This document shows positions 31,332-49,205 of a stretch of 64,000 nucleotides of DNA, piece after piece (position 1 is the stretch's first letter; every line of letters begins with the position of its first letter). The translations under genes were made by a program, and so were the position numbers. The DNA is from Candidatus Margulisiibacteriota bacterium. GTDB taxonomy: Bacteria > Margulisbacteria > WOR-1 > O2-12-FULL-45-9. The notes under the pieces are model-generated. The model saw only the letters and a list, made by a program, of their open reading frames with translations. It searched no databases and was not told the DNA's origin. Location: contig JAYEOW010000024.1 in the NCBI GenBank assembly GCA_034723395.1, positions 22,205 to 86,204 on the forward strand. Direction: 5' to 3'.

Positions 31332-31332
31332 C

Positions 31333-32100: not shown

Positions 32101-32111
32101 CGTTTACTCCT

Positions 32112-32867
32112 TTAGACCACCTTTATTTGTGATACATCATCAATCACGTAGTTAGTCAGATTTTGTAGTTGTTCTCTCGGCGTTATCCCGGAACAGACCG
32201 CGATACTAGCTTTAACTTTGGCGTTATTCCCCATTTTAATATCAGTTTCAGCATCACCCACCATGACCATCCGATTCTTAGCAATTTTAAGCTCTTGCGA
32301 GATCAAATCGATCATATCCGGAGCAGGTTTTGAGAGCTCAACTCCATCTGCTCCGATTACAAATGACATCTTTTCGGAAAGCCCAAGAAAATCCATCGAA
32401 AGTTTAGCCCTTTCTGTTTTATCAGTCGTTGCGATCGCCGTTTTACATCCTTTGGCATGTAAAGTATCGATCAAGTCGTATGTCCCATCGATTACTTTTA
32501 TAAGGGTGTCCAGCATATCTCTTGATATTTCATCAACCTTACTAAATGCTTCAAGACAAGCCGTTCGCCCGTCTTTTATCCCAAACTGATGCAGATAATC
32601 GATTGCCGCCTGCATAACCACCTCGCGCTTTTTAATTCCGACCGGTCCTTCCGAACGCAGTTTTTTGTTCTCTAAATCTACCCCCATCTCAAACATCATC
32701 TTTTGCCTATGATCCCCGTCCAAATTGAACTTTTCGCAGATCAACTCTGCCCTTTTGCCAATCATTTGCGACCAGTAATGGTAGAGATCAATCAGTGTAC
32801 CGTCGCGATCGAAGATCACCAGATCAATATCTTTTATTACCTGACCATTAACTTTAATATCAGCCAC
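32112..32867 (-). CDS. HAD-superfamily phosphatase
   Basis: IFDRDGTLID, KP.PD, MVGD..TDI.MG. Confidence 0.88.
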   Translation of the reverse strand: MADIKVNGQVIKDIDLVIFDRDGTLIDLYHYWSQMIGKRAELICEKFNLDGDHRQKMMFEMGVDLENKKLRSEGPVGIKKREVVMQAAIDYLHQFGIKDGRTACLEAFSKVDEISRDMLDTLIKVIDGTYDLIDTLHAKGCKTAIATTDKTERAKLSMDFLGLSEKMSFVIGADGVELSKPAPDMIDLISQELKIAKNRMVMVGDAETDIKMGNNAKVKASIAVCSGITPREQLQNLTNYVIDDVSQIKVV

Positions 32868-35579: not shown

Positions 35580-37401
35580 ATCCAACCCCTTCCTTTTCAG
35601 TATTTTTTATCTGCGTATTATATAGACTCCAATAGTGTCTGCCTTTTTCCATTAACTCTTCGTGGTTTCCTGATTCGATCACTTTCCCCTTATCAAGCAC
35701 GATAATCTTATCTGCATTAATGATCGTACTTAAGCGATGGGCAATAACAATTAAGGTATGGTCTTTGGATAATGCATTGATTGTCTGCTGAATTATCTTT
35801 TCTGAAACGTTATCTAAGGCGCTGGTCGCCTCGTCAAAGATAAGGATCTCTGGCTTGCGATAGATCGCCCGGGCAATCGCGATCCGCTGGCGCTGCCCGC
35901 CCGATATCTTCATCCCCCGGTCACCGACAACCGTATTATATCCATCCGGAAATTCAGAAATAAACTCGTGGGCATGCGCTACTTTAGCAGCTTCAACCAC
36001 CTCATCCATTTTCTCAGCGGTATCTCCGCCAAAAGTAATGTTTTCTGCAATGGTTGCATTAAAAATAAATGTATCCTGGGTAACGAATCCGATCTTTTTC
36101 AACCAGGACGATATCCTGCTAATATTTAACTCAATACCATCAATTAATATTTTCCCGTCCTGCGGCACAAATACCCTGACGATCAAATCCGCAATGGTAG
36201 ATTTTCCTGCACCGGAAGAACCAACGATCGCAGTCGTCTCCCCCTTCTTGAAGATCGAATTAATTTTATTAATGACCCTATCCCTTCCCGGATAAGAAAA
36301 ACTGACGTTTTCAAAACGGATCCCTTCTGAAAATGATTTAATCTCTTTTTCACCATCTTTTATCTTGTTTGAATCTTCATGCAAAACGTAGTAAAGCAAT
36401 TCTAAAGTGGGCAAAATCCCCATAAACTGGATCCTAAAATTACCCAAGATCGCCATTGAAGGAGTCACTTTTTGGAACGCATAAGCAAAAACTCCTAAAA
36501 TCGGCAGTAGGCTCATATAGCTGGTTGGCAGCAATAATTTCACTACAATCAGCAATACTGCCAATAATATAACCGAGAGTGATTCCAACAATACTTTAGG
36601 AAGGTTTTTCCAGATAACATCTCTTCGGGCGAGGTTAAAATATTGCTTCATCGCTTTGACGAATTCGGTTACCCACCGATTTTGTGAATTATATACTTTG
36701 ATCTGCCGGATCCCGCTTACACTTTCATTGGCTAAAACATTCATCCGCTCCCCGGCATATATTCGCCCCTTCCCTAAATTATAAGATATGTTGGTAGCGA
36801 TGTATTTTGTTAAATAATAATACAATCCTCCGATAACGATAATTCCGATCGAGGCATACATATGAATGTTAAGTAGAACCAGCCCAACGACCGCCAATCT
36901 TACTATTTCGGTAAGCATACGCGGAATATAGTCAAATATCGCGCCCGCCGATGAAGGAGCCGATATTATCCGATAGATCAGCTCTCCCTGTTTATGATCA
37001 AGAAAAAATTGATAATCAGCACTGATGTATTTATTAAAGATCCCTTTCTGCGTGTCTGCCCAAATATGATAAGCAGCAAACATCCCGTAGATCACGTTCC
37101 AGTAAGCAAATACACCTTTTAAGACAACAGATAATATTAAAAGTACCGCAGATGCAACCATCTTATCCTGGATCGGAACGATCCCGATCAGGCCTTCTGT
37201 GAATTTTATAAAACTACCTCCGACCGTACCGGTCATCCCGGACGGCAGCATTTCACTTAATACGGTAAAGAGAATCGCCAGATTCAATCCGTCAAAGACT
37301 GAAGCCAAAAATGCCAATAGGATGATCCCAAGCACGTATACCGGATGCTGTCTGATAAAATACCAGATGATCTGAAACTTTGTAATGCTGTTATTCTTCA
37401 A
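35560..37401 (-). CDS. ABC transporter permease/ATPase, PglK/MsbA-like glycan flippase
   Basis: 6 TM segments plus GSSGAGKST, ISGGQRQRIAIARA, DEATSALD, AHRLST. Confidence 0.85.
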   Translation of the reverse strand: MKNNSITKFQIIWYFIRQHPVYVLGIILLAFLASVFDGLNLAILFTVLSEMLPSGMTGTVGGSFIKFTEGLIGIVPIQDKMVASAVLLILSVVLKGVFAYWNVIYGMFAAYHIWADTQKGIFNKYISADYQFFLDHKQGELIYRIISAPSSAGAIFDYIPRMLTEIVRLAVVGLVLLNIHMYASIGIIVIGGLYYYLTKYIATNISYNLGKGRIYAGERMNVLANESVSGIRQIKVYNSQNRWVTEFVKAMKQYFNLARRDVIWKNLPKVLLESLSVILLAVLLIVVKLLLPTSYMSLLPILGVFAYAFQKVTPSMAILGNFRIQFMGILPTLELLYYVLHEDSNKIKDGEKEIKSFSEGIRFENVSFSYPGRDRVINKINSIFKKGETTAIVGSSGAGKSTIADLIVRVFVPQDGKILIDGIELNISRISSWLKKIGFVTQDTFIFNATIAENITFGGDTAEKMDEVVEAAKVAHAHEFISEFPDGYNTVVGDRGMKISGGQRQRIAIARAIYRKPEILIFDEATSALDNVSEKIIQQTINALSKDHTLIVIAHRLSTIINADKIIVLDKGKVIESGNHEELMEKGRHYWSLYNTQIKNTEKEGVGYAKEAA

Positions 37402-37405
37402 TATC

Positions 37406-38776
37406 TCATGCTCCTTTTCTTTCCAGTGTTTTCAATGACTCTAATATCCTCCGGGAATATGACCTCTCATCATGATAAACAATATGCGCCAAGCTATCTT
37501 TTATCTTTTGCCTAATGCCCTTTTCCTGGGAGATCTTCAATACCTTGTTGATCTCTTCCAAAAATCTATCCTTTTCTTTGCATTCTACAAACCACGGAAA
37601 TTTCTTTAAATACGTAAAATGTTCTCTTTTTGACATTTCCTGCACAGAATTTGGGCCCGCATGTACACCATCGCTGCATGCCAATCCTAATATTAGATTG
37701 CCAAAAAGGCCCGCCTCGACCATTACCGAAGAGAACGGTGAAATGATGAAGTCAATCGCATTATACAGATCGAGGAAATTACGCAGGTCCGGGATGTATC
37801 CGCTCTTATGATTCAGGTACGCTCCCCGCATCTCCCCGTCAAAAGTGACGTTTTCGAACTTGCAATCAAAAAACGACTTTTCCTTTATTCTGGCATCGCG
37901 CTCCGGATGCGGCCGGTATATCACATGAGCATCCTTTAACAATCCCCTGGCGATCAGATCATCGAGCATTATAAGGAAGGAGGTTTCATCGAAGGGACGC
38001 AACGATCCCCCCAGTAGAATGACCACTTTATCCGCCGGAATACCCAGCCTGCCGAGGTATTCCTTCCTTTTCTTTTCGCGGTCGGTTTTCTTCTGAAATT
38101 CATAATACATTTCGTAATGGGGCACCCCTATACGGAAAATTCTTTCTCTCTTCAGCCCGAAGATCTTCTCACATATATCCTTATTCTGCGTTCCCCTCTC
38201 CAAAATAACGTCCGGCGGCAGGTAAAGGAAAAGCTTGCTACTGGCGTTATCCCATCCGGTGGGAATTACGACGCTTAAAATACCCAGTTCCCTGCATATT
38301 TTGATCAGGTCGATCCCGATATTCCCCGGCGTGGCAATGGGGATGATCATATATTTAAGGCCCAGAGGCTTTAGTTTTTCTTTCAATTCTTTGTCCAACG
38401 GGATCATCTTTTCGGCCAAATATACCAATACTCTATAAATATAATCGTTAAACAATAGCCGGTACAAATAATATTTTTTCCGTGGTCGGCCGTCCGGCGC
38501 AAAATAACCCCGCGCATAAGTGGAAGAATGCTTTGCCGCCCTAGCAACGAACAACTTAACCAAATATTTCCTGATCTTATCTTTAAAGCGGCTTAATTTT
38601 GGATCGTACGTTATCGTTTTCCCCTGGAGCAATCCCAGAATCTTGTCGTTCCTGGAATTATTCTCCAGCAAATAATAAACGTCATATTCCCCCTCTAGGG
38701 CGGCAAAGGCCTTCGTCTGGACATATTTCTTATAGATCTCCTCTCCAGACAGATATATCAGTATTTTATTTTTCAT
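37406..38776 (-). CDS. uncharacterised GT-B-like protein, candidate CMP-ulosonate transferase
   Basis: GWDN.SSK, G.PHY, YRPHP, SS..VEA...G; directly after a NeuA-family gene. Confidence 0.5.
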   Translation of the reverse strand: MKNKILIYLSGEEIYKKYVQTKAFAALEGEYDVYYLLENNSRNDKILGLLQGKTITYDPKLSRFKDKIRKYLVKLFVARAAKHSSTYARGYFAPDGRPRKKYYLYRLLFNDYIYRVLVYLAEKMIPLDKELKEKLKPLGLKYMIIPIATPGNIGIDLIKICRELGILSVVIPTGWDNASSKLFLYLPPDVILERGTQNKDICEKIFGLKRERIFRIGVPHYEMYYEFQKKTDREKKRKEYLGRLGIPADKVVILLGGSLRPFDETSFLIMLDDLIARGLLKDAHVIYRPHPERDARIKEKSFFDCKFENVTFDGEMRGAYLNHKSGYIPDLRNFLDLYNAIDFIISPFSSVMVEAGLFGNLILGLACSDGVHAGPNSVQEMSKREHFTYLKKFPWFVECKEKDRFLEEINKVLKISQEKGIRQKIKDSLAHIVYHDERSYSRRILESLKTLERKGA

Positions 38777-39528
38777 GCGCTCTCCGGCATAGGGAACGGT
38801 TTTTTATCGATCTGCGGCAGATGCGCTTCGCCGTTTTTTAGCATAATATCCGCCAGGGCCCAATCTCTTTCATAATCGATCACAAAACCTTCTTCTTTAC
38901 TGGTGAGAAACGGTGCGATTATCTTTCCCTCTCTTGAATTATGCTCCCAAACCACTCGGACCCAGGCTATCTCCAGCGAGCTATTTTGTACGTGAACTTT
39001 GGGCAGCGCTTGATATTGGCCCGCATGCCAAGGTTTCTCCAGGTGCGATTGGTCCAATAATGGCCTCATCCTGTTCCCTTCAAGAACCCACATTTTACCC
39101 GGATGTTGTGAACAAAGCTCAACTGCACGCAAAGAATCTATCCCCTCATTGCCCACAAATTCTTTCCAGGCCCGCTTTACAGTTTCCACCGTGCGGAACG
39201 GGCTGGTCGGCCGGATAATACTAAATGCTCCATCTTTTATATCGAGCTCGGTCAATGCATGTTTTATCCATTCGATCCCCGGAGAGGTTGCCGTTGCGTA
39301 CTCAGCCGGCCGCAGAAAAGGCGCTTCTGCCCCATAATAAAGCGCGATCTCTCTAAATAACTCGGAATCAGTAGATACGATCACCCGATCAAAAAGATTG
39401 CTTTGGATCGCAGTTTGAATAGAATAAGCAATTAGCGGATGTCCGCCCAGATAGCGGATATTTTTATTTTTTACCCGCTGCGATCCCGCACGTGCAGGAA
39501 TTAATGCAACTACTTTACTCTTTTTCAT
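38773..39528 (-). CDS. acylneuraminate cytidylyltransferase family (NeuA-like)
   Basis: LIPAR.GS.RV.NKNI..L.GHPLIAY, VSTDS, PFLRP, RPTSPFR. Confidence 0.9.
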   Translation of the reverse strand: MKKSKVVALIPARAGSQRVKNKNIRYLGGHPLIAYSIQTAIQSNLFDRVIVSTDSELFREIALYYGAEAPFLRPAEYATATSPGIEWIKHALTELDIKDGAFSIIRPTSPFRTVETVKRAWKEFVGNEGIDSLRAVELCSQHPGKMWVLEGNRMRPLLDQSHLEKPWHAGQYQALPKVHVQNSSLEIAWVRVVWEHNSREGKIIAPFLTSKEEGFVIDYERDWALADIMLKNGEAHLPQIDKKPFPMPESA

Positions 39529-40436
39529 CCATTTTCCCTACTTTCTATCATTTCGATCATACTTTTTATTACAGGAGAATTAAGTCCATACTTTTCACCG
39601 GTCCTAACCACCGCTCCGGCGATCGCATCGATCTCTGAAGGTCTCCCGGCCAAAACATCACGCTGCATCGAAGTACCTAAGGTCTCAGGCATTGAATCGA
39701 TCTTCTTCATCTCTGCAATCGGATCGATCGTTACTCCATCTTTCGCCGCAATCGATGCTCCTTCTTTAATGCTCCCCTCCAACTTTTCCCGCCAAGCACT
39801 ATCGCTGCGGATAAATCCAAGCATTTTTTTAGAAGCAGCCGTGGTACAAGCAAGCGCATTAAGCCTAACTAATTTTCTCCAAACTACTTCTGCCTCTGAA
39901 CCTAAAACAGCAGCATCGATCCCGACCTCGGTTAAAATATTTTTAACTTCATCTGCTCCCGTTTTTTTTGCTAATTCGATCCTCACCGTTTTTGTAGTAT
40001 GTTGAATATGGTTGGCTGATATTCGTTTTAATTCAACATTCCCAATCGTTGCGGCAATTATCCGATCGCCAAAGATTGATCTTAAGTATTCATTATGTTC
40101 AATCCCGTTTAACAGCGGGACAATAACTGCATTCTTTGTTCGCTCTGGTTTTATCCGTTTTACCGCATTCTTTAGATAAGTAGCTTTGGTTGTGATAAAG
40201 ATAATATCAGCATCAGTATCAAGCTCACTGATAACTTTTGGCTTAACCGTAAAATCACCAAACACTTTACTCTCAAGCCTGATACCTTTTTCTTCAATCT
40301 CTTTGCCTGAGGTCTCTTCATCAATACAGACCACATTATAACCATACTTTATCAGCAAAGCCGTCAGGAAACCCCCTACCGCTCCCGGACCTAAAATCGC
40401 GATTGATATATCCTTATTTTTCCCAGGGATGGGCAC
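39525..40436 (-). CDS. ketopantoate reductase (PanE/ApbA) family 2-keto acid reductase
   Basis: GPGAVG, TTKA, LLNG, W.KL..LN, TSMQRD...GR.SEIDAI.G. GTG start after GAGGAGG. Confidence 0.85.
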   Translation of the reverse strand: MPIPGKNKDISIAILGPGAVGGFLTALLIKYGYNVVCIDEETSGKEIEEKGIRLESKVFGDFTVKPKVISELDTDADIIFITTKATYLKNAVKRIKPERTKNAVIVPLLNGIEHNEYLRSIFGDRIIAATIGNVELKRISANHIQHTTKTVRIELAKKTGADEVKNILTEVGIDAAVLGSEAEVVWRKLVRLNALACTTAASKKMLGFIRSDSAWREKLEGSIKEGASIAAKDGVTIDPIAEMKKIDSMPETLGTSMQRDVLAGRPSEIDAIAGAVVRTGEKYGLNSPVIKSMIEMIESRENG

Positions 40437-41589
40437 GAATAACCTCCTCATTCAGCTCTAATCCCCAGCCGGGTCGCTGAGGAACGGTCATATAGCCATC
40501 TCTGATCTCCGGAACTTCGGTCACGATCTCATCTTTCCAGGGGACATCATCAATATCCACTTCAAGGATCTTAAGATTTGGTATCGCCGCGCAAAACTGG
40601 GCGCTAATAAACGTGGAGAGATGGCTATAATAATTATGCGGAGTAACATTTATCTCATAAAGCTCTGCCATATCAGAAATCTTCTTCGACTGGATAAAAC
40701 CGTTCCAGATAATATCTATACTACAGACATCCATCGCATGTTTTTCCAGGTAAGGGCGATAATCTCTGGTTGTATATAGATTTTCACCGGAACAGATCGA
40801 AGTTCTGGCCGATTGTTTAATCTTCAACAACGCATTTGGATCGTAGGAGTCGATCTCCACCCAGAAAAGATTATATTTCTCTAACGCTTGGGCTATTTTA
40901 ATATACCCTTCGGTTTTAAAATTAAAATTCAGGTCGAGGATTATTCCAACATCATCTCCGGTCCCCCTGCGAAACGCGCTGATCTGTGAATTAATCGTGT
41001 CAATTATCTTATTGTTCACGTTAAGCTCAGGGCTGCCTAATCCACCCTTAAATCCAGGCATATAGACTGTTGGATTTTCTCCCGTAAAAATAATATTAGT
41101 TTTTAGCGCGGTAAACCCTCTGGTTTTAACTTCATTCCCCAACTTTTCTATATCGCCTAGTGTCTTTAATGGATCTTTACCGACCATCTGCCATGCTCTG
41201 GCTCTGGTTGTGCCGCAATGCGACCAATAGACTTGCACTTTGTCCCTGATCGGACCGCCAAACAGTTCATATACCGGAACTCCTAAAGCCTTCGCTTTAA
41301 TATCTAATAAAGCATTTTCTATGCCACCAATTGCCTTTTGGATAATACTTCCAGGACTTTGACGTGTTATCGAATACAAATCCCAGTATATTTTCTCTAC
41401 CGGCCGTGGATCTTTACCAATTAAGTGCTTTTTTAAATTCTCTATTACTCCTTTAATTCCTAATGGCGAACCATGCGAATCTGTACATTCACTGTAACCG
41501 ACAATACCTTCATCAGTTGTTATTTTAATAAATAACCAAGGTCTCCATCCAGCATCACACTGTAGTAACTCAACATCTTTTATTTTCAT
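40414..41589 (-). CDS. enolase-superfamily (mandelate racemase / acid-sugar dehydratase) enzyme
   Basis: TDEG.VG.SE, IGKDP, ENAL.DIK.KALG.PVY.LFGG, GENL, PHN, PG.G.E. Confidence 0.88.
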   Translation of the reverse strand: MKIKDVELLQCDAGWRPWLFIKITTDEGIVGYSECTDSHGSPLGIKGVIENLKKHLIGKDPRPVEKIYWDLYSITRQSPGSIIQKAIGGIENALLDIKAKALGVPVYELFGGPIRDKVQVYWSHCGTTRARAWQMVGKDPLKTLGDIEKLGNEVKTRGFTALKTNIIFTGENPTVYMPGFKGGLGSPELNVNNKIIDTINSQISAFRRGTGDDVGIILDLNFNFKTEGYIKIAQALEKYNLFWVEIDSYDPNALLKIKQSARTSICSGENLYTTRDYRPYLEKHAMDVCSIDIIWNGFIQSKKISDMAELYEINVTPHNYYSHLSTFISAQFCAAIPNLKILEVDIDDVPWKDEIVTEVPEIRDGYMTVPQRPGWGLELNEEVIRAHPWEK

Positions 41590-42527
41590 AGTTTACCTCC
41601 GCAAAGGTTAACAACCTCATCAACAATTTTCTTAATCGTTAATCCTTCTTCTTCCATAAGGCAAGTTGCGGAACCAACCCCGCAGAATTTATCATTAATT
41701 CCTATTCGTTTTACTTTCGCATTCCCTTGTTCCGCAACAACTTCACAAACTGCTCCACCTAATCCGCCTAAAAGATTGTGTTCTTCAACGGTAATAATTT
41801 TTCCAGTCTCTTCGGCTGCTTTCTGAACAGATATTTCATCCAAAGGTTTTACCGAAGCCATTTGTAGCACTCTAACATTTAACCCATGCTCTTTTTTAAG
41901 GATATCAGCCGCCTGCATACCTTCATACATCATAATTCCAGTGGTAATGATCGTCGCATCATTCCCTGATCTTATTTCAGTTGCTTTCCCGATCTCGAAC
42001 TTATCTTTCTCAGTATAAATATCCCAGGCATCCCCTGCACCTAAACGAATATAAACTGGCCCATTATGTTTAAAAGCAGCTTCAACAACCTGTTTCATCT
42101 CTGCAACATCACCAGGAACCAACACGGTCATATTTGGAATCGAACGCATAATTGCAATATCTTCGATCGCATGATGAGTTGTTCCTGCCGTACCTGTGCT
42201 TATCCCTCCATGAGTAACAAGAAATTTAACATTAAGATTCGGATAAGCAATTGTTGTCCGCACCTGTTCACAAGATCGCATTGAAATAAAACAGGCAAAC
42301 GAATGGGCAATGGGAATCTTGCCAGCCAGAGATAGTCCAGCCGCAATCCCAACCATGTTCTGCTCGGCAATCCCAACTTCGACATATCTTTCGGGATACG
42401 CTCTTTGAAATTGAATCGATTGCGTTGACTCTTTCAAGTCAGCCTCAAGTGCAACAATATTTTTATTTTTATTTGCTAATTCAACAATATATTTTCCATA
42501 TTCGTTTCTCATGCCCTGCATAGCCAT
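41586..42527 (-). CDS. transketolase, C-terminal subunit
   Basis: GIAEQNMVG.AAGL, R..EQ.R, THH..ED, VEEH...GGLG. Confidence 0.92.
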   Translation of the reverse strand: MAMQGMRNEYGKYIVELANKNKNIVALEADLKESTQSIQFQRAYPERYVEVGIAEQNMVGIAAGLSLAGKIPIAHSFACFISMRSCEQVRTTIAYPNLNVKFLVTHGGISTGTAGTTHHAIEDIAIMRSIPNMTVLVPGDVAEMKQVVEAAFKHNGPVYIRLGAGDAWDIYTEKDKFEIGKATEIRSGNDATIITTGIMMYEGMQAADILKKEHGLNVRVLQMASVKPLDEISVQKAAEETGKIITVEEHNLLGGLGGAVCEVVAEQGNAKVKRIGINDKFCGVGSATCLMEEEGLTIKKIVDEVVNLCGGKL

Positions 42528-43366
42528 TATTCGTGCTCCTTGATCAATACCGCAGCCTCTTTTTTAGCAACCTCGGCGTCTTCACCCTTAAGCCCGCCGC
42601 CATGCCACTTATGGGTATCTTCCATAAAAGAGATCCCTTTACCTTTTACCGTATTAGAAATTATTAATGACGGCTTACCACTTTCAAATGGAATCTTTTT
42701 TAGTGTAGGAAGAATCTGCTCAAAGTCGTGCCCATCGATTTCGACTACGTTCCAGCCAAACGCTTTCCATTTTTCAACATACGGTTCTAAATCCATTACA
42801 TCTTCAGTTCTTCCATCGATTTGGATCATATTCCGGTCAACAATGCCAATTAGGTTATCCAACTTATAATGCGCTGCCGACATTGCTGCTTCCCAGATCG
42901 ATCCCTCCTGGGTTTCGCCATCGCCCATCAATACATAAGTTTTATAATCTTTTTTATCCATCTTGGCCGCTAATGCTAGACCGATTCCGACCGAAAGCCC
43001 GTGGCCTAAAGAACCGGTACTCATTTCTACCCCAGGAACTTTATGCATATCGGGATGGCCGCCTAAAATACTATTATCCTGCCTAAAAGTTAGTAACGTC
43101 TCCTTATCAAAGAATCCTCTAAAATGCATTACCGCATACAATCCGATAGAAGAATGTCCTTTACTTAAGATAAAGCGATCCCGCTCATCCCAATCCGGAT
43201 TTTTTGGATCGATCTTTAACTGGTCAAAGAAAAGGGCGGTCATCATATCGACACTCGACATCGCTCCCCCCGGATGGCCGCAGCCGGCGCAGATCAGCAT
43301 ATCGACCATCGCATGCCTGGCTTGGGCCGAAAGTTTTTTTAGCTCTTTTATTTTACTTTTATCCAT
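42527..43366 (-). CDS. transketolase, N-terminal ThDP-binding subunit
   Basis: GHPGG.MS, DRFILSKGH, STGSLGHGL, GDGE.QEG..WEA, DGHD, KGKG. Confidence 0.92.
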   Translation of the reverse strand: MDKSKIKELKKLSAQARHAMVDMLICAGCGHPGGAMSSVDMMTALFFDQLKIDPKNPDWDERDRFILSKGHSSIGLYAVMHFRGFFDKETLLTFRQDNSILGGHPDMHKVPGVEMSTGSLGHGLSVGIGLALAAKMDKKDYKTYVLMGDGETQEGSIWEAAMSAAHYKLDNLIGIVDRNMIQIDGRTEDVMDLEPYVEKWKAFGWNVVEIDGHDFEQILPTLKKIPFESGKPSLIISNTVKGKGISFMEDTHKWHGGGLKGEDAEVAKKEAAVLIKEHE

Positions 43367-43376
43367 CAAATACTCC

Positions 43377-44834
43377 CTACTTCATCTTATATTGTGACTG
43401 CTGCGCGATACCGCTGTAATCGATATAAATGGTTTTCCATTCTGAGAATACATCGACCGCTTGCGTTCCCGGCTCCCGATGGCTATTGCCCGATTTTTTT
43501 AGCCCGCCAAAAGGCATATGCGGTTCAGAGCCAAAGGTCGGTCCGTTAATATAACAACAGCCGGCCTCCAGCTTATCCATTGCATGGACAGCTGAATCAA
43601 CATCTTTGGTAAATATCGAAGCGGTCAAACCATAATCAACTGAATTGACCATTTTAATTCCTTCCCCCAGCGATTTTATTTTAAATACGCACAATACCGG
43701 TCCAAAAATCTCTTCCTGGGCAAGCTTTGAATTGTGATTAACATCGGTAAAGATTGTCGGTTCAATATAATATCCTTTGGCATATTTTCCTTCAGCAAGC
43801 GCGTTCCCTCCATAGGCAAGCTTCGCCCCTGACTTCTTACCCTCTTCAATATATGAGAGGATGCGATCAAATTGCCGTTTATTAATGATCGGGCAAGAGA
43901 TCGAATCGGCTTTCGCTTCGGCCAGTAAAAGCTCCATAAACATTTCATAAACTTGTTCATGGATAAAAACACGGCTGGTCGCCGCACATCTTTGTCCGGC
44001 GGTTGAAAATGCTCCCGCAGCCACCGCTTTTGCCGCCGTTTTAAGATCGGCATCCGGCATAACGATCAATCCGTTTTTACCGCCCATCTCTAAAGAACAG
44101 GTTTTATTCTGTTTACCGCACTCCTCCGATATTTTTACCCCAACCTGGCTGGAACCGGTAAATGAAACTAATTTAACATCCTGATTTTTTACCAATGCCT
44201 CACCAGTTCCCGGACCGCTGCCGTATACTATATTAACCACTCCGTCAGGGATCCCCACTTCTTTTACCAACTCACCAAAATAATGGGCGGTTAGCGGCGT
44301 ATCTTCTGATGGCTTTAATACAACCGTATTGCCGCAGATAAGGGCCGGGAATAATTTCCAGGTGATAATCGCCATCGGCGCGTTCCAAGCGGTGATTAGG
44401 CCGCAAACTCCTACCGGATAACGTTTGGTCAACGCCCAACGCCTGGGGAGCGATGAATATGTAGTCTGCCCATACATTCTTCGCCCTTCTCCAGCCATAA
44501 AGTAAGCTACATCGGCGCTTGACTTAATGTCCCCCATCGCGGCCGGTGTCGGTTTGCCGTTTTCGTGAACAATAATTTCGGCTAGTTTTTTTTGGTCCCT
44601 CATCAACAGCTCCCCAACCTTATAGATCAATTCCCCTCTTCTAGGTGGCGGCATGTCGCTCCATTCCGCGTAAGCATTTTTAGCGGCTTCAATCGCTGCC
44701 TCAACATCTTTAGCATTAGATTTTGGAAATTTTCCGACTATATCCGATTTATCTGCTGGATCTATATTATCGAAATATTCCCCCGAACTTGGTTCAATTA
44801 GCTTTCCCCCGATTAGATTCTTGTACTTATCCAT
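43377..44834 (-). CDS. aldehyde dehydrogenase (2,5-dioxopentanoate dehydrogenase-like)
   Basis: [41 protein letters not shown]. Confidence 0.93.
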
Positions 44835-44845
44835 TATTTATCCTC

Positions 44846-45616
44846 CTACCAGGCGGTTAAACCGCCGTCGATTATAATATTTGATCCGGTAACATAAGAC
44901 GATGCGTTAGAAGCGAGAAAGATCACTGCTCCGTTGTATTCATCTTCGTTGGCCATCCGACCTAATGGAACCTTATTACAGTAGCCTTCAAGAAACTTTT
45001 CATCCTGTCCGTTAAATACCCCGCCCAATGACAATGTGTTGACTCTGACTCCCTTCTTTGCCCAGTAAGTAGAAAGATAGCGGGTTAGGTTTAATACCGC
45101 TGATTTAGTAACCGAATAACTGACCGGCTTATAAAAGTTATTCCGGTATTCGTAAATTCTCTGGTCTGGAGAAACATTCCCATAGATCGATGAGATATTA
45201 ATGATACTTCCTCCGCCATTCTCTGCCATGTGCTTCCCGATTACCTGGCAGCAAAAGATCATCCCTTTTAAATTAACATTATAGGTTTGATCAAGCGAAC
45301 TTTCGGGATAATCTTCAAACGGGCCATTTTCATCGGCAGAAGCATTTGGCGGCGCGTCCAACGCTGCGTTGTTAATTAGAATTGTCGGCGAACCTAGATC
45401 GTTCACTGCTTTATCCAACGCTTCTTTAATCGAGCTTTTTTTTGTAATATCTACTTTATAAGAAGCGTAGTTTTCGCTATTTTCCTTCTCAGCATCGGTC
45501 CGAATATCAAAAACAGCAACTTTAGCTCCAGCATCAAGCAAAGCTTTTGTATATTGAGATCCCAATTGACCCAAACCTCCGGTCACGATCGCTATTTTAT
45601 TTTTTAAGTTAAACAT
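44846..45616 (-). CDS. short-chain dehydrogenase/reductase (PtmA-like)
   Basis: TGG.G.LG, NNAA, SSIYG..SPD...Y, YSVTK, P.GRMA...E. Confidence 0.88.
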   Translation of the reverse strand: MFNLKNKIAIVTGGLGQLGSQYTKALLDAGAKVAVFDIRTDAEKENSENYASYKVDITKKSSIKEALDKAVNDLGSPTILINNAALDAPPNASADENGPFEDYPESSLDQTYNVNLKGMIFCCQVIGKHMAENGGGSIINISSIYGNVSPDQRIYEYRNNFYKPVSYSVTKSAVLNLTRYLSTYWAKKGVRVNTLSLGGVFNGQDEKFLEGYCNKVPLGRMANEDEYNGAVIFLASNASSYVTGSNIIIDGGLTAW

Positions 45617-46100
45617 TTTCTATCACCTTAACTGCAGCAATCATGTCACACACTTCTCTAACCGCACCACAACCACCTTTGTTTTTGGTCGTATATTTCG
45701 CATATCCCAAAACATCCTTATGAGCATCTGCTACAACAATTGGTAATCCAACCGATTTTAAACATTCAAGATCATTTATATCATTTCCCATAAAAGCAAC
45801 TTCTTCCATCGTCAAGAATTTTTTCTGAACCTCTTCCTCTAGTTTATTTAATTTATCTTCGCATGCATTTACACAATATATCTTTAATTTTTCAGCCCTC
45901 TTTTTAACTACTCCATTTACTTCAGTAGATAAAATCATTAGATCAATACCAATGTTTTTCAATTTTGACAAGCCGATCCCGTCCGATCTATTACAAACAA
46001 CCGACTCTTCACCCTTCTCGCTAACCATCACTAAATTATTTGTAAACACACCATCAAAATCAAATACGACAAATTTAATTTTAGAAAAATCCAAAGTCAT
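45609..46100 (-). CDS. KdsC/YrbI-type ulosonate-phosphate phosphatase
   Basis: FDFDGVFT, R.DG.G, GNDIND, GG.GAVRE. Confidence 0.88.
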   Translation of the reverse strand: MTLDFSKIKFVVFDFDGVFTNNLVMVSEKGEESVVCNRSDGIGLSKLKNIGIDLMILSTEVNGVVKKRAEKLKIYCVNACEDKLNKLEEEVQKKFLTMEEVAFMGNDINDLECLKSVGLPIVVADAHKDVLGYAKYTTKNKGGCGAVREVCDMIAAVKVIENV

Positions 46101-46103
46101 TTT

Positions 46104-47156
46104 TTATTGCTCCAAATACTCAAAGGATAAGAGAGCTTCTTCTTCCAGGTCCTGTTTAATCTTCTTCCCAATTACGTCATGTATTCGCGAAGGCGGGATC
46201 CCCGATCCCGGGCTCTTGTAAACGATCAGCTCCTCAGATATTACAGTCCCTTTTTTAAGATCATTCTTTAACATAATACTTTTACCCATTTTCTCTTTAG
46301 CTGACCGCTCAAAATCGTGGCATTTTTTCTCATATGAGCCAAAAGCCTCCCTGATTCGGTTAAGGTCACGGACCATTTTTCTTAAACCTTGCGGTTCAAG
46401 CGAAAATTTATGGTCGGTCCCTTTCATCGTTCGATTTAAGGTGAAGTGTTTTTCGACCATTCTCGCGCCTAATACATAGGCAACGACCGGAATAACGATC
46501 CCGTTATCATGGCCCGAATAGCCGATAATCGCTTCAGGGAACTCCTCCTTCAATGTCTTTATAACATTAAGGTGAATATCCTCAGGTTTTGCCGGATAGG
46601 ATGCGGTACATTGCATAATACATATCTGGTCGGTATGTTTTCTTAAGATTACGTAAGCAGCTTTTACCTCCTCCAGATCACAAGCCCCGCTTGAAATAAT
46701 TACCGGCTTCTTCTTGCTTCCCACATAATCGAGCAGTGGATGGTTAGTTATATCTCCAGAAGCAATCTTATAGGCGGGGACGCCGATCTCCTCAAGAAAA
46801 TCTACACTCTCAAAATCGAAAGCGGTGGCAAAAAAGATCAGCCCTTTATCTTCCGCATACTTTTTTAGCTCCAGATATTCAGCCTTGCCAAATTCCAGCG
46901 CCTCCCGGTGAGCGCCATAGGTCAGACCGAAGCTATTCTCATTCTCATATGGTTTGTTAAACATCGCCGTGGTATAAAGCGATCGATTGGCTCTCTTTTG
47001 CAGTTTTACTGCCTGGGCGCCGCAAAAGGCCGCTTCATCGATCATCTTCTTGGTGGTCTCGATATTCCCCTGATGGTTGTGTCCGATCTCGACGATCACG
47101 AAACAGGGGGAATCGTCAGATATTATCTTACTTCCTATTTTAATTTCCTTTTTCAC
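46104..47156 (-). CDS. NeuB-family ulosonate(-phosphate) synthase with SAF domain
   Basis: EIGHNHQG, KLQKR, KIASGD, GYSGH, EKHFTL.R...GTDH..SLEP. Confidence 0.9.
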   Translation of the reverse strand: MKKEIKIGSKIISDDSPCFVIVEIGHNHQGNIETTKKMIDEAAFCGAQAVKLQKRANRSLYTTAMFNKPYENENSFGLTYGAHREALEFGKAEYLELKKYAEDKGLIFFATAFDFESVDFLEEIGVPAYKIASGDITNHPLLDYVGSKKKPVIISSGACDLEEVKAAYVILRKHTDQICIMQCTASYPAKPEDIHLNVIKTLKEEFPEAIIGYSGHDNGIVIPVVAYVLGARMVEKHFTLNRTMKGTDHKFSLEPQGLRKMVRDLNRIREAFGSYEKKCHDFERSAKEKMGKSIMLKNDLKKGTVISEELIVYKSPGSGIPPSRIHDVIGKKIKQDLEEEALLSFEYLEQ

Positions 47157-47878
47157 GAAATGCCTCCTTGTCGTAGTATTTCAAACACCTCAGCATGCTT
47201 AAAATCTTTATTTTTTGCCCTCATTTCTGATAGCTCAAAAACAGATTGAGGAGAAAGAGACGCTGGATACTCCCGTAGCTCACTTTTATAAGCTCTTAGA
47301 GCCTCAAGCTTTAACTGAATGGAAATTGTAATGTCAACAAAATGATTGGGCTTAATATTATTTACAGCTTTTGGAGGCAACACATCTATATTCCCCGGTA
47401 TTTCATAACAATATATCGACTCTGCCTCTTTGCTTATTTGACGACTCTTCCTAAATGCAGTTATGGTTGCCTCACAGCATACTCGATGATCCTTGTTCAG
47501 ATCACCCCAGTGGTGCGTATAAACTATATTAGGCGGAAAGTCTTGAGCAACATATTCTATTTTTTTAACTATATCAAGTAATGGAAACTGGTCTAAGCGT
47601 TGGTCAGGCAAACCAAAATAATGAATATCATCTTTCTGCAAACCTATGATCTTGGCTGCCTCATAAAGTTCGTTCTTTCGTGTTTCTATTTGATCATGTG
47701 CTATTTTATTAAGTTCCACATTCTGCATCCCAGGAGAATAAAAACGTGAAGTCACCCCATCTGCGACAATAACAACGCGTACTTTATCTCCGCCTCGATA
47801 ATGCTTGGCAATTGTTCCTCCGCAGCCTAATATCTCGTCATCGGGATGAGCTGCAATAACTAATACATTTTTACTCAT
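47153..47878 (-). CDS. PIG-L/LmbE-family N-deacetylase
   Basis: AAHPDDE.LG.GG, YTH..GD...DH. Confidence 0.88.
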   Translation of the reverse strand: MSKNVLVIAAHPDDEILGCGGTIAKHYRGGDKVRVVIVADGVTSRFYSPGMQNVELNKIAHDQIETRKNELYEAAKIIGLQKDDIHYFGLPDQRLDQFPLLDIVKKIEYVAQDFPPNIVYTHHWGDLNKDHRVCCEATITAFRKSRQISKEAESIYCYEIPGNIDVLPPKAVNNIKPNHFVDITISIQLKLEALRAYKSELREYPASLSPQSVFELSEMRAKNKDFKHAEVFEILRQGGIS

Positions 47879-48569
47879 TATCTTCTCCAGCTAAACTGAT
47901 TTTTACCTTTGCATCAATATAATGATCCTTAAACTTTGCCTGAGAAAACTCAATTTTTACGTTTTTATTCTTTAAAAATGCTGCAGGATAGCCCTCTGCG
48001 TCTAACATCCTGATATGATCATATATTTCCATTAAGGAATTTAACGCGGCAATACTGCTCTCTTCCGGTTTTCTTCGCTTAAATATTGTCACTTCTCCTA
48101 CTTGCTTTTTTGGAGCCGGACTATGCTCAATTATCTGCGGGATCATTTCTTCGAATATAGTTTTACTAGCACGCCGATAGATTTCTCCGGCCGAACCAGC
48201 TAAATCCAGCTCTTTTTTTAAATATACCGGTCCCGCATCCAATTCTTCCACAACTTTAATCGCAGATATTTTAGTGTTACGAATCCCCCGTTGAATTAAA
48301 TTTTGCAACGGGCTTCCGCCTCTACCAAAAGGAAGATCGGTCATGTGGAATAAAATACATTCCCAGTGATTATATACTTCGTTCGGGATCTTCCAGGACC
48401 AATGCGGAAAAAATATATATTTTGGATTTATTTTTTCTAAATACTCCTTCGACAACATAGATTTTTCAGACACAACAAAAACATCATAGCCGATCTGTCC
48501 TCCGATTTTATTCGCATAGTCGATGTTCCACGATTTTATTGTAGCGATCACAATACTGCCTTTGCCCAC
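47871..48569 (-). CDS. sugar N-formyltransferase
   Basis: FPHWSW, FHMTDLP.GRGGSPLQN, LDAGP, IRMLDAEGYP.AF. Confidence 0.82.
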   Translation of the reverse strand: MGKGSIVIATIKSWNIDYANKIGGQIGYDVFVVSEKSMLSKEYLEKINPKYIFFPHWSWKIPNEVYNHWECILFHMTDLPFGRGGSPLQNLIQRGIRNTKISAIKVVEELDAGPVYLKKELDLAGSAGEIYRRASKTIFEEMIPQIIEHSPAPKKQVGEVTIFKRRKPEESSIAALNSLMEIYDHIRMLDAEGYPAAFLKNKNVKIEFSQAKFKDHYIDAKVKISLAGEDNE

Positions 48570-49205
48570 CTAAGCCTCCTCCTTATATATCTTCAATAAG
48601 TATTTTTTGCCTTTATTCGAGAAAAAGGCAGGGTAACGGTCGTTATCAACTACCCTCAGCCTGTTAAATAAATCTTTCAAAGGAACATCAATTGGCAACT
48701 CACTGTCCCTTGGGCCTCTCCTAGGATAAAAACTTTCGCTGCCTTCTTGTTTTTTACGGACATTATCTGGATAATCTTTAAAGAACCTGCATACCAACTC
48801 AACAGTTTTTTTTCCTTGTTTTTCCCTAAGCTCACCTATAAGTTCATGCCCCTCGAATACTATTTCGTCTTTCAGATAAATATCCCCACTATCAACATCA
48901 GCATTAGCTCCAAATAACACTATTGGAACCCTGTTTTTCCCCTCAATAATTTGCCAAGTTAATGGGGACCAGCCTTTACCCGACGGCAAATCGCTCTCAT
49001 GCACAACTAGATTATGTTTATTTCTATCAAGAATTGACTGAGGAATTATTTTTTCATAACCCAAAATAACTAAACATCCCCCTCTTATAACATCATTATG
49101 ATCATAAAAAACTTGCACAGCATGCTCCCGGTTCAGCTTTTCGCGAATCTGCTCTACAAAAGGCCTAATCCAGCTCTTTTTTTCAGTAAGAATTGATACA
49201 ATCAT
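48570..49205 (-). CDS. sugar N-formyltransferase
   Basis: VVHESDLP.GKGWSPL.WQI, VDSGDIY, LRVVDN..YPAFF. Confidence 0.82.
   Translation of the reverse strand: MIVSILTEKKSWIRPFVEQIREKLNREHAVQVFYDHNDVIRGGCLVILGYEKIIPQSILDRNKHNLVVHESDLPSGKGWSPLTWQIIEGKNRVPIVLFGANADVDSGDIYLKDEIVFEGHELIGELREKQGKKTVELVCRFFKDYPDNVRKKQEGSESFYPRRGPRDSELPIDVPLKDLFNRLRVVDNDRYPAFFSNKGKKYLLKIYKEEA

Follow-up and report, generated by a model that had tools for sequence, protein, structure and literature searches.

A widely conserved gene cassette that probably builds a sialic-acid-like cell-surface sugar with a second acid group

The KDN route of Bacteroides thetaiotaomicron proceeds via KDN-9-phosphate and uses a synthase, a HAD phosphatase and a CMP-KDN synthetase. 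The block described here resembles it in combining a NeuB-family synthase, a KdsC-family HAD-IIIA phosphatase and a CTP_transf_3 protein in the absence of amino-sugar genes. It differs in that its phosphatase scores below the KDN-9-P phosphatase equivalog (97.3 < 180), its synthase, here called NeuB3, passes no equivalog, and the cassette adds a core SDR, an aldehyde dehydrogenase (ALDH) and a non-canonical transketolase (TK), together at this locus with a dehydratase and a 2-ketoacid reductase. A pathway to KDN (3-deoxy-D-glycero-D-galacto-nonulosonic acid) is described also for Prymnesium (PMC6200933). In the Kdo8N pathway of Shewanella, KdnB oxidises Kdo at C8 (Gattis et al. 2013, as cited in PMC5125639). 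In this pathway, as in the one proposed for the cassette, an ulosonic acid already freed of its phosphate undergoes oxidation at the distal carbon ahead of activation; however, KdnB is an iron-type alcohol dehydrogenase rather than an SDR, the outcome is an amine rather than a carboxylate, and the Kdo8N pathway is without transketolase, ALDH, dehydratase or reductase.

To our knowledge, Dha is the only natural 3-deoxy-2-ulosaric acid known, and the predicted cassette product would fall into one sugar class with it. If the facial selectivity of NeuB is conserved, this product would presumably not be D-lyxo, unlike Dha. No link to Dha producers was found in rhizobial plasmids, which gave only NeuB paralogues of 35-38% identity. 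Both are points against the explanation given below. The passages on Dha in PMC3355719 and PMC12168206 list its activated form and biosynthetic enzymes as unidentified; for the sugar itself PMC5713287 cites Russa 1991.

The block and its locus

The window, i.e. the whole 64,000-nt stretch of DNA analysed, carries ten contiguous ORFs on its minus strand at 37406-47156 (Table 1). The gene order from NeuB to an orphan transferase given in the first-pass annotation was confirmed for all ten ORFs and families by coordinates and by Pfam domain calls above the gathering cut-offs. Neighboring ORFs overlap or are separated by at most 11 bp, except for a 38-bp overlap of the enolase-family and PanE-like ORFs. 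An ABC exporter gene starting 4 bp past the end of the transferase gene is possibly linked to the block, with uncertain membership; it falls below the HepA-family cut-off (428 < 725) and shows no conservation with the cassette at the other NeuB3 loci compared. That aminotransferase and NeuC are absent, as also annotated, is correct inside the block but not for the locus, which upstream holds PseC, a DesI-like aminotransferase, NeuC, NeuD, PseG, PseI and a second NeuB/LegI; four NeuB-family genes are present in the whole window.

Table 1. Genes of the block and the adjoining exporter, with window positions and Pfam matches
Feature	Position	Strand	Pfam match
NeuB3, divergent NeuB-family PEP-condensing ulosonate synthase, 350 aa	46104..47156	-	NeuB + SAF
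KdsC-family HAD-IIIA phosphatase, 163 aa	45609..46100	-	Hydrolase_3 32.6 bits
Classical SDR oxidoreductase, 256 aa	44846..45616	-	adh_short_C2 143.8 bits
NAD(P)-dependent aldehyde dehydrogenase (ALDH), 485 aa	43377..44834	-	Aldedh 527 bits
Transketolase N-terminal (ThDP/PP-domain) subunit, 280 aa	42527..43369	-	Transketolase_N 216.6 bits
Transketolase C-terminal subunit, 313 aa	41586..42527	-	Transket_pyr 141.3 + Transketolase_C 95
Enolase-superfamily (MR/MLE) acid-sugar dehydratase-like, 391 aa	40414..41589	-	MR_MLE_N 63.8 + MR_MLE_C 142
PanE/ApbA-family 2-ketoacid reductase, 308 aa	39525..40451	-	ApbA 95 + ApbA_C 68
CMP-ulosonic acid synthetase (cytidylyltransferase), 251 aa	38773..39528	-	CTP_transf_3 72.6 bits
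TagF-like (Glyphos_transf) transferase, 456 aa	37406..38776	-	PF04464 36.3 > 22.1
ABC exporter (MsbA/PglK/HepA-like), 613 aa	35560..37401	-	ABC_membrane + ABC_tran

NeuB3 (Pfam NeuB 277.9 bits) lies below both equivalog cut-offs, NeuB_NnaB (316.6 < 399.65) and PseI (250.6 < 340.25), and, set against solved NeuB and PseI chains, contains a conserved insertion around residues 55-90. The phosphatase retains the DxDGV motif, passes TIGR01670 (109.3 > 106.95) and stays below the KdsC equivalog (115.8 < 208). It is the only KdsC-family gene of this 97% complete genome, in which no KdsA scored over cut-off. This lack of KdsA, together with the NeuB3-HAD fusions described below, supports the KDN-type phosphorylated route annotated earlier. 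Neither a NeuB3 orthologue nor the enolase-family gene was found in any of 40 relatives, which with the missing KdsA and the sole KdsC-family gene points to a dedicated cassette role in this genome; the PanE family occurs in 1/40, weakly (E 6e-11), and so is not the housekeeping reductase of the lineage, despite the presence of panB. In this genome the cassette is an acquired module inside a giant, hypervariable glycan locus.

Conservation of the cassette

NeuB3 orthologues are widespread at 48-73% identity, in glycan contexts of Acidobacteriota and Chloroflexota MAGs and on many metagenome contigs. Among 86 loci with an orthologue of at least 48% identity, 32 have at least 5 kb of downstream sequence, and these carry the SDR (28/32), ALDH (27/32), CMP-synthetase (28/32), any TK (28/32) and KdsC (16/32); the counts overstate independence, many loci being from related MAGs (e.g. 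L003 and L004 look identical). Where at least 7 kb is available (32 loci), SDR, ALDH, TK and CMP-synthetase are all present in 27 and SDR, ALDH and TK all missing in four, and SDR plus ALDH without TK was seen in none; L067 is without ALDH. NeuB3, SDR, ALDH, transketolase and CMP-synthetase are thus a core module conserved across distant phyla. The KdsC-type phosphatase goes with it, adjoining NeuB3, in half of the loci, and its lack in the other half, like that of ALDH at L067, is a point against the route proposed below. Unbiased ORF clustering of the loci gave no further widely conserved partner; a conserved kinase, isomerase, aminotransferase, ligase or acyltransferase was absent.

The first four proteins of the module are also found as pairwise natural fusions: NeuB3-KdsC (P0017, P0021), KdsC-SDR (P0241), NeuB3-SDR (P0243, P0303) and SDR-ALDH (P0242, P0246, P0284). 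Further partners of the SDR are the CMP-synthetase and a class-III aminotransferase (P0277), and a TK domain is absent from all 74 SDR fusion proteins recovered. The fusions and the 27-28 of 32 syntenic NeuB3 loci with SDR, ALDH and TK support the earlier inference that catabolic-looking enzymes are used here biosynthetically; the case that would have refuted it, middle genes missing from syntenic loci, did not arise. The enolase/PanE pair accompanies the cassette in just two of the 32 loci (L058 and L079), with PanE also in the truncated L083; the pair is therefore an accessory add-on rather than core.

Taken alone, each protein is named like a catabolic enzyme in family scans, and homologues are labelled "galactonate dehydratase" or "transketolase" in their sources, as would fit an unrelated acid-sugar catabolic operon, from SDR to PanE, inserted between NeuB/KdsC and the cytidylyltransferase. 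Such an insertion is hardly credible given the recurrence of the genes in colinear order at 27/32 NeuB3 loci, which span phyla and lie in glycan contexts, the fusions to NeuB3 and KdsC, the distribution among the 40 relatives given above, and the housekeeping TK that the genome already has; by Pfam, the block is also free of the transporters, kinases and aldolases that catabolic operons typically have. On the best explanation, the block is a single operon that makes a tailored, CMP-activated 3-deoxy-2-ulosonic acid by the route set out below; taken as a whole, we give this explanation about an even chance.

Predicted route to the product

A literature search aimed at pathways of this type found none, and the widely conserved, undescribed pathway of the cassette probably builds a sialic-acid-like sugar with a second acid group for the cell surface. 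On the best reading of the sequences, the product would be a CMP-activated dicarboxylic 3-deoxy-2-ulosaric acid. Every chemical step rests on family-level similarity, with the SDR at most 35% identical to characterised enzymes. NeuB3 would join PEP to one of the common aldose phosphates; as in the KDN route, this is probably a hexose-6-phosphate. The KdsC-like enzyme would remove the terminal phosphate. The SDR would then form a ketone from the penultimate (omega-1) hydroxyl in the glycerol-like tail, and from this ketose-type end the specialised transketolase would take off the terminal two-carbon ketol unit; ALDH would turn the resulting aldehyde into a second carboxylate, giving a 3-deoxy-2-ulosaric acid two carbons shorter, so that a nonulosonate, for instance, would end as a heptulosaric acid. 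The product is somewhat more likely than not to have a second carboxylate; the specific SDR-TK-ALDH order of truncation is proposed tentatively, at somewhat less than an even chance.

Of the product types suggested at first pass, "dicarboxylic" and "deoxy" are favored and "chain-extended" and "hydroxy-acid substituent" are not, a chain-shortened product being more likely than a chain-extended one. Small hydroxy acids are frequent acyl substituents of nonulosonic acids, and TK, ALDH, dehydratase and 2-ketoacid reductase could jointly yield a C2-C4 hydroxy acid or other small acid to decorate an ordinary KDN-like ulosonic acid without remodelling its backbone; just upstream of the block are PIG-L deacetylase and formyltransferase-like genes. 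These genes, however, are part of the Pse block and do not accompany NeuB3 elsewhere, conservation of the cassette extends to no ligase, acyltransferase, or enzyme of CoA or ACP activation, a block without amino-sugar genes offers no amine to acylate, and the fusions of SDR and ALDH to NeuB3 and phosphatase in other organisms point to the sugar itself as substrate, which leaves the substituent very little probability.

The SDR, for which we propose oxidation of the ulosonate at its distal end, retains the TGxxxGxG and YxxxK motifs; its best NCBIfam matches are PRK09186 (173.6 < 255), gluconate 5-dehydrogenase (152.7), GolD/DthD (148.4) and KduD (119), and its nearest families, i.e. gluconate 5-DH, KduD and the polyol 2-dehydrogenases (GolD/DthD), act by oxidation at the penultimate carbon. 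For ALDH, the proposed maker of the second carboxylate, the nearest equivalogs are 2,5-dioxovalerate DH and alpha-ketoglutaric semialdehyde DH (~472 bits, below cut-offs of 750-770), whose substrate for oxidation is the omega-aldehyde of a 2-keto-3-deoxy acid; the copies in L047 and L035 share 66% identity with it, and as a query its only match in the genome is the block copy.

The TK N-subunit keeps the GDGE..QEG..N ThDP motif and the conserved catalytic His positions, and the C-subunit matches (284.7 bits) the split TK of C. hydrogenoformans (ChTK, PDB 6yaj/6yak), which likewise has separate PP and Pyr/TKC subunits. In the C-subunit GEDG is replaced by GTAG, the EcTK D469 equivalent being Ala114, and the R520 equivalent is Ala164. 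Both are lost in the TKs of the window and L047, and the fused cassette TKs retain none of R358, S385, D469 and R520. Contig C51 carries a second split TK, 48.8% identical to the cassette N-subunit and likely the housekeeping copy, which keeps GEDG and the Arg, with all four equivalents retained. The window TK keeps the R358, S385 and H461 equivalents, which we take to be three of the four phosphate ligands, so binding of a sugar phosphate may still be within its reach. In all cassette TKs the ThDP machinery is intact while the canonical Asp and Arg of the substrate site are gone, and unlike canonical and split TKs they are encoded inside a glycan cassette. Like the C51 TK, ChTK keeps the D469 and R520 equivalents (PMC7661550), and substrate specificity is set by these residues (PMC7661550, PMC5073344).

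The SDR-ALDH fusions, none with TK, are most simply read as the SDR acting directly before ALDH, i.e. terminal CH2OH to aldehyde to carboxylate with unchanged chain length. The TK would then act elsewhere, e.g. upstream in making a possibly unusual aldose for NeuB3; pathway-specific transketolases act in this manner in aminoshikimate (AHBA) biosynthesis. The gene order NeuB3-KdsC-SDR-ALDH with pairwise fusions in that order, the absence of TK from the 74 SDR fusion proteins and the three phosphate ligands of the window TK agree with this, as does the Kdo8N precedent (PMC5125639), in which a free ulosonate is oxidised at its terminal carbon. However, fusions mirror gene adjacency, so the absence of SDR-TK fusions is not decisive against the truncation order. 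Direct oxidation leaves unexplained an altered-site TK beside the SDR in all 28 SDR-bearing loci with enough flank and in a Streptomyces megaplasmid variant, and why SDR and ALDH never lack TK; no other precursor-making genes are conserved, the nearest characterised families of the SDR oxidise secondary rather than primary alcohols, and the loss of all four phosphate/hydroxyl ligands in fused cassette TKs argues against ordinary sugar-phosphate substrates. It is on balance unlikely, though a serious competitor to truncation. The Streptomyces variant (NeuB3-SDR-TK with HAD and a class-III aminotransferase, without ALDH) and the P0277 fusion fit a carbonyl intermediate that is either oxidised or aminated, and parallel the KdnA aminotransferase of the Kdo8N pathway.

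Accessory enzymes, activation and transfer

In the window and the few loci with the accessory pair, the dehydratase would use the new carboxylate to eliminate the beta-hydroxyl and the PanE-like enzyme would reduce the resulting alpha-keto group, for a net gain of one deoxy position. Enzymes of the enolase superfamily depend on a carboxylate with an alpha proton. A 2-keto-3-deoxy acid offers no such proton at its C1 end, so the presence of this enzyme would imply the new carboxylate. The ORF lies below the galactonate dehydratase equivalog (173 < 311) and has 392 bits to PDB 2oo6/3go2/3sn0/3sn1/3sn4; its AF2 model (pLDDT 94.6) matches these at Z 58, rmsd 1.4 A and 46% identity, and all other structural neighbors are acid-sugar dehydratases. 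That this nearest solved homologue is without known function is a point against the explanation, as is the rarity of the accessory pair. The cassette copies are 58% (L058) and 52% (L079) identical. The PanE-like ORF passes TIGR00745 (182.3 > 141.35) and no equivalog, with copies in L058, L079 and L083 at 39-40% identity.

Activation to the CMP-sugar would be by the cytidylyltransferase, which keeps the N-terminal RxGSxR..KN motif, is below the PseF cut-off (119 < 205.7) and is nearest among solved structures to N. meningitidis CMP-NeuAc synthetase (79 bits); copies at other loci are mostly 52-57% identical. The TagF-like protein, which would transfer the activated sugar, is a candidate for this step. 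TagF-like transferases of Streptomyces are presumably linked to Kdn transfer, and in the block, too, a TagF-family (Glyphos_transf) protein stands beside ulosonic acid synthesis genes; the window protein matches Glyphos_transf weakly and has no NCBIfam match. The Streptomyces polymer is a Kdn-containing teichulosonic acid (PMC7831098). Most other cassettes carry instead an unrelated protein of ~575 aa without Pfam match ("unk572", 14/32 loci), and at L096 a 41% identical homologue of the window transferase follows a NeuB3 orthologue of 67% identity.

The NeuB3 cassette in its glycan locus

Nearly the whole window is a single minus-strand glycan locus that runs from about 12.7 kb to the contig end. 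It encloses a compact block of ten open reading frames, placed exactly by the first-pass annotation and separated or overlapping by a few bases only. In order these encode a divergent NeuB-family synthase (NeuB3), a KdsC-family HAD phosphatase, a classical short-chain dehydrogenase (SDR), an aldehyde dehydrogenase (ALDH), a split transketolase (TK) in two halves (TK-N and TK-C), an enolase-superfamily protein, a PanE/ApbA-family reductase, a putative cytidylyltransferase of the CTP_transf_3 family (CMP-synthetase) and a weakly matching TagF-like transferase. All family assignments made in that annotation are backed by Pfam and NCBIfam matches, which also bear out its statement that the block contains neither an aminotransferase nor NeuC.

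Coordinates of the cassette, its neighbors and the variant loci discussed
Feature	Sequence	Positions	Strand	Content
Glycan locus	window (contig C24)	12707-64000	-	at least 51 kb
NeuB3 cassette	window	37406-47156	-	ten ORFs
Six-gene module	window	28802-35585	-	HMGL-like aldolase-MptE/Maf-like fusion; LdpA-like 4Fe-4S protein; HAD; HpcH/HpaI/GarL-family pyruvate aldolase; KdsB-like cytidylyltransferase (over cut-off); TIGR04326-like protein
Six-gene module, counterpart	locus L109	6853-13680		same six families
Deacetylase/formyltransferase set 1	window	47153-49205	-	PIG-L-type deacetylase and formyltransferase-like genes
Deacetylase/formyltransferase set 2	window	61393-62796	-	PIG-L-type deacetylase and formyltransferase-like genes
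592-aa ORF	window	51286-53064	-	weak NeuB-like domain (61.8 bits) and CTP_transf_3 cytidylyltransferase domain
Metagenomic variant	locus L096	1-13700		NeuB3, sulfotransferase, TagF-like protein
Streptomyces variant	locus L110	8413-19267		NeuB3, SDR, fused TK

NeuB3 belongs to the NeuB family by its PF03102 match (277.9 bits, cut-off 22.1), an SAF match of 32.9 and retention of the EKH and GxSGH motifs, and this membership is confirmed in the protein atlas. It falls below both the NeuB/NnaB (TIGR03569, 316.6 against 399.65) and PseI (TIGR03586, 250.6 against 340.25) equivalog cut-offs, and carries an insertion that may resemble animal Neu5Ac-9-P synthase. The adjoining phosphatase barely exceeds its subfamily cut-off (TIGR01670, 109.3 against 106.95) and scores 97.3 against the 180 required for the KDN-9-P phosphatase equivalog NF058599. 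Synthase and phosphatase are joined in single polypeptides: the NeuB3-HAD fusions P0017 (whose HAD half shares 52% identity with the phosphatase of the window) and P0021 couple the synthase to a KdsC-family phosphatase, as in the KDN-type phosphorylated route, for which mannose-6-phosphate is the defining substrate. A housekeeping role for the KdsC-like gene was considered and rejected. No KdsA (KDO-8-P synthase) over the cut-off is found in the genome (1.68 Mb, 97% complete; best score 134.9 against 314) and the cassette copy is its sole KdsC-family gene; the cassette phosphatase is therefore not serving Kdo synthesis. The cytidylyltransferase has a PF02348 match (72.6 against 22.6) confined to residues 7-92, scores 119 against 205.7 for PseF, and has CMP-NeuAc synthetase as its nearest solved structure (79 bits); the TagF-like match is partial (PF04464, 36.3 against 22.1, profile positions 145-281 of 367).

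In 40 relatives that share its family, order or class, neither a NeuB3 ortholog nor the enolase-family gene was found, and the cassette is a dedicated, acquired module in this genome. The PanE-like protein belongs to its family (TIGR00745, 182.3 against 141.35) and passes no equivalog (best 160.4 against 252). It was rejected as the lineage's housekeeping pantothenate enzyme, since the family is seen in only one of the 40 relatives, weakly (E 6e-11), and recurs beside the cassette elsewhere; panB is present in the genome. The distinct six-gene module downstream was likewise rejected as part of the cassette: in the comparison genome G040 the whole set is found in unchanged order, at 48-74% identity, without the NeuB3 cassette. 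This independent conservation marks the cassette boundary.

Recurrence, fusions and variants of the cassette

The first-pass annotation had proposed asking whether the gene set recurs in glycan loci, and it does. Scanning one genome per species with NeuB3 yielded 22 loci; the top six, at 51-56% identity, are from Pyrinomonadaceae, Chloroflexaceae/Chloroflexota and Altiarchaeota metagenome-assembled genomes. Colinear NeuB3-KdsC-SDR-ALDH-CMP-synthetase-TK genes occur in five of these six, among glycosyltransferase and methyltransferase genes; at the sixth, an archaeal locus, the contig stops past the SDR. A metagenome scan with the NeuB3 ortholog alignment confirmed at least 486 relatives, of which the best 80 (48-66% identity) were kept, giving 86 loci in all for comparison. 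Where at least 5 kb follows NeuB3 on its 3' side (32 of the 86), SDR is found in 28 loci, ALDH in 27, CMP-synthetase in 28, TK in 28 and KdsC in 16, at each of which it adjoins NeuB3; these counts are not wholly independent, as they include near-duplicates such as L003 and L004. Within the set having at least 7 kb downstream, SDR, ALDH, TK and CMP-synthetase are all present together in 27 of 32; one further locus (L067) has SDR, TK and CMP-synthetase with a GDSL protein in the place of ALDH, two have the synthetase alone and two have none. Query-free clustering of all ORFs led back to these families and brought out no further partner of wide occurrence. A ~575-aa protein without annotation is present in 14 of the 32 loci with 5 kb or more downstream.

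The enolase-family and PanE-like genes form an accessory pair of the cassette, found again beside it in L058 and L079, with PanE alone in the truncated L083. Homologs of NeuB3 and of the enolase-family protein number in the thousands, and four of the enolase-family homologs match NeuB3 homologs exactly in the length of their longest contig (61,445, 174,146, 55,962 and 7,580 bp), which suggests, short of proof, further co-occurrence. Little weight is given to the possibility that the middle genes act on a side chain or are a passenger catabolic operon.

A search for longer proteins carrying the block-type SDR gave 74 matches, representatives of which were compared with the window proteins. They include fusions of KdsC to SDR (P0241; 57% and 52% identity to the window proteins), NeuB3 to SDR (P0243, with 52% and 47%, and P0303), SDR to ALDH (P0242, with 57% and 41%, P0246 and P0284), CMP-synthetase to SDR (many, e.g. 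P0244, with 33% and 50%) and aminotransferase to SDR (P0277; SDR half 38%). SDR and ALDH are thus tied to the synthase and phosphatase in one pathway. The SDR fusions with CMP-sugar synthetase (~500 aa) are common among P0244-P0314, including records named Thaumarchaeota, Agrobacterium and Hyphomicrobium, and the same range holds two SDR fusions with a Gfo/Idh/MocA oxidoreductase; the block-type SDR family seems to have a general, so far unexplained role in nonulosonic acid pathways.

Two variants separate the synthase from parts of the set. At L096, the closest metagenomic NeuB3 among the matches listed (67%), the next genes encode a sulfotransferase and a TagF-like protein with 41% identity to the one in the window, B12-radical-SAM, SPASM and methyltransferase genes lie upstream, and SDR, ALDH and TK are absent. 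This set points to a differently tailored ulosonic acid, possibly sulfated or methylated; the synthase is thus a module that can be combined with more than one set of tailoring enzymes. On a linear megaplasmid of Streptomyces sp. NBC_01237, NeuB3 (49%), SDR (42%) and a fused TK (42%) are consecutive, near glyoxalase/dioxygenase-like, FMN-dehydrogenase, class I/II aminotransferase, LuxR regulator, RmlD-like reductase, HAD and class-III aminotransferase genes; neither ALDH nor a cytidylyltransferase is found in this context. The locus resembles a gene cluster for a secondary metabolite in which the synthase-SDR-TK triad has been redeployed; the triad thus persists when the aldehyde-consuming enzyme changes. 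A tblastn search of plasmids with the fused TK gave an ortholog-level match at this locus only.

Transketolase and a possible truncation route

Both the window and cassette TKs conserve the ThDP motif GDGE..QEG..N and the catalytic His positions (GH, SKGH, GHPD). The canonical sugar-phosphate binding residues are taken here to be R358, S385, H461, D469 and R520 in E. coli TK (EcTK) numbering. By alignment with the closest solved split TK, that of Carboxydothermus (284.7 bits to TK-C), and by a MAFFT alignment that takes in every cassette TK, the equivalents of D469 and R520 in the window are Ala114 and Ala164. Its closest relative, at L047, has likewise lost both, the Asp of GEDG and the distal Arg, and the fused cassette TKs (~640 aa), which are nearest to human-type TK, lack all four canonical ligands. 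The window TK does not retain the full canonical sugar-phosphate site of EC 2.2.1.1, with three of the four phosphate ligands still in place, and its subunits score singly 318.8 and 275.5, both below the 488 of the TK equivalog NF004559. The genome has in addition a DXS-like gene and, on contig C51, another split TK, about 48% identical to that of the window and probably the housekeeping copy, which retains the canonical substrate positions. One report describes altered TK specificity on mutation of R358, S385, D469 and R520, with the Carboxydothermus enzyme (ChTK) given as without any such mutation (PMC7661550), and another describes a S385Y/D469T/R520Q variant whose acceptor preference is shifted off phosphorylated aldehydes (PMC5073344). 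With canonical ligands replaced, the ThDP motif and His residues kept and a canonical copy on C51, the cassette TK is probably not just an extra enzyme of the pentose phosphate pathway.

The characterized families nearest to the SDR are gluconate 5-dehydrogenase, KduD and polyol 2-dehydrogenases, and that nearest to the ALDH is alpha-ketoglutarate-semialdehyde dehydrogenase. The enolase-family protein has the superfamily domains (MR_MLE N-terminal 63.8 and C-terminal 142 bits) and fold (Z 43-58 to enolase-superfamily structures), reaching no equivalog (NF010624, D-galactonate dehydratase, 173 against 311; ManD 139.7 against 550; others lower). Its model (pLDDT 94.6) is closest, at Z 58 and 46% identity, to the Burkholderia xenovorans structures 2oo6/3go2/3sn0/3sn1, and all remaining structural neighbors are acid-sugar dehydratases; the B. 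xenovorans entries presumably hold fumarate, tartrate and 2-oxoglutarate.

The conserved trio of SDR, TK and ALDH could be accommodated in one linear scheme. A nonulosonate built by the NeuB-type synthase would be dephosphorylated before tailoring; the SDR would then oxidize the penultimate hydroxyl (C8) to a ketone, creating a ketose-type terminus from which the specialized TK would clip the two-carbon ketol (C8-C9), leaving an aldehyde; and the ALDH would convert this new C7 aldehyde to a carboxylate, the product being a 3-deoxy-heptulosaric acid that would be CMP-activated. On stereochemical grounds, the tail of a KDN-like nonulosonate is assumed to be D-threo, as TK donors require, and the ring oxygen to fall at the position normally contacted by the lost TK Asp. 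Enolase-superfamily chemistry depends on a proton in the alpha position of a carboxylate, which is missing at the C1 end of a 2-keto-3-deoxy acid; the presence of such an enzyme in the block therefore argues for a second carboxylate. In this window the product would lose a further hydroxyl through dehydration and subsequent reduction of the resulting 2-keto group by the PanE-like enzyme, which would make it additionally 3,5-dideoxy.

That the cassette product is dicarboxylic is considered moderately probable. The order SDR-TK-ALDH is a tentative assignment, at somewhat less than even chances, against which stand the three phosphate ligands kept by the window TK, the local absence of KdsC from half of the loci and the rarity of the enolase/PanE pair in the sample. 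Alternatively, and more simply, the SDR itself could make the terminal aldehyde for direct oxidation, the TK acting elsewhere, and the existence of SDR-ALDH fusions, together with the absence of a TK domain from all 74 SDR fusion proteins, is in favor of this. It is rated somewhat less probable than the truncation order; against it stands the constant company of TK with SDR, in 28 of 28 SDR-bearing loci and in the variant from Streptomyces, and none of the loci compared (32 with sufficient flank) combines SDR and ALDH without TK. The broader proposal, of a TK-dependent truncation in bacteria and archaea of many phyla that leads to CMP-3-deoxy-heptulosaric acid as the first genetically defined ulosaric route, is likewise put at somewhat less than even chances.

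The cassette represents a real and conserved tailoring branch of CMP-ulosonic acid biosynthesis that is apparently undescribed and for which an unusual role of TK is proposed; no published description of the gene set was found among the matches listed from the openly accessible literature. It shares with the KDN-type route the scaffold of synthase, HAD phosphatase and putative cytidylyltransferase, but differs in that its phosphatase and synthase fall short of the specific equivalogs. To our knowledge Dha is the single natural member of the predicted sugar class, the 3-deoxy-2-ulosaric acids, and the expected cassette product would differ from it in stereochemistry. Within the plasmid collection, Dha-producing Rhizobiaceae gave only NeuB paralogs at 35-38%, and no link of the cassette to Dha producers was seen there. 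In reviews of 2012 and 2025 the enzymes and activated form of Dha are still given as unidentified, and green algae are believed to have their Dha genes from prokaryotes (PMC3355719, PMC12168206). Precedent for oxidation of a free ulosonate at its distal end comes from Kdo8N synthesis (PMC5125639). If the truncation scheme is true, many genes of wide phylogenetic spread that currently carry the names transketolase, aldehyde dehydrogenase, galactonate dehydratase or 2-dehydropantoate reductase would belong to an undescribed surface-decorating branch of ulosonic acid biosynthesis. The formation of dicarboxylic ulosaric acids would for the first time have an enzymatic rationale, and transketolase would gain a new biosynthetic role in glycan tailoring. 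New anionic surface sugars are relevant to recognition by phages and the immune system, to metal binding and to glycoengineering, and the cassette is small enough for direct reconstitution.

Other nonulosonic acid genes of the locus

The glycan locus occupies about 3% of the 1.68 Mb genome, ends about 160 bp short of the contig end, and contains at least four cytidylyltransferase domains. There are four NeuB-family genes in the window on account of the complete pseudaminic acid (Pse) and legionaminic/neuraminic (Leg/Neu)-type gene sets that lie upstream of the cassette; of these four, the two full-length paralogs besides NeuB3 exceed their own equivalog cut-offs (PseI, 473.7; NeuB, of NeuB/LegI type, 480.7). 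The 592-aa two-domain ORF is inside the Pse block, between PseG and a PFTS-motif-like protein. Atlas structural neighbors of NeuB3 include clusters of ~796-aa proteins in which a NeuB domain is combined with a flavoenzyme domain of the amine-oxidase/NAD_binding_8 type, which is another synthase-oxidoreductase coupling. Since the genome has no KdsA over the cut-off, the downstream six-gene module may lead, by way of an aldolase, to a different keto-deoxy acid in CMP-activated form. The two PIG-L/formyltransferase-like sets flank the Pse and Leg/Neu genes and suggest N-acyl exchange, e.g. to N-formyl, on these nonulosonic acids.
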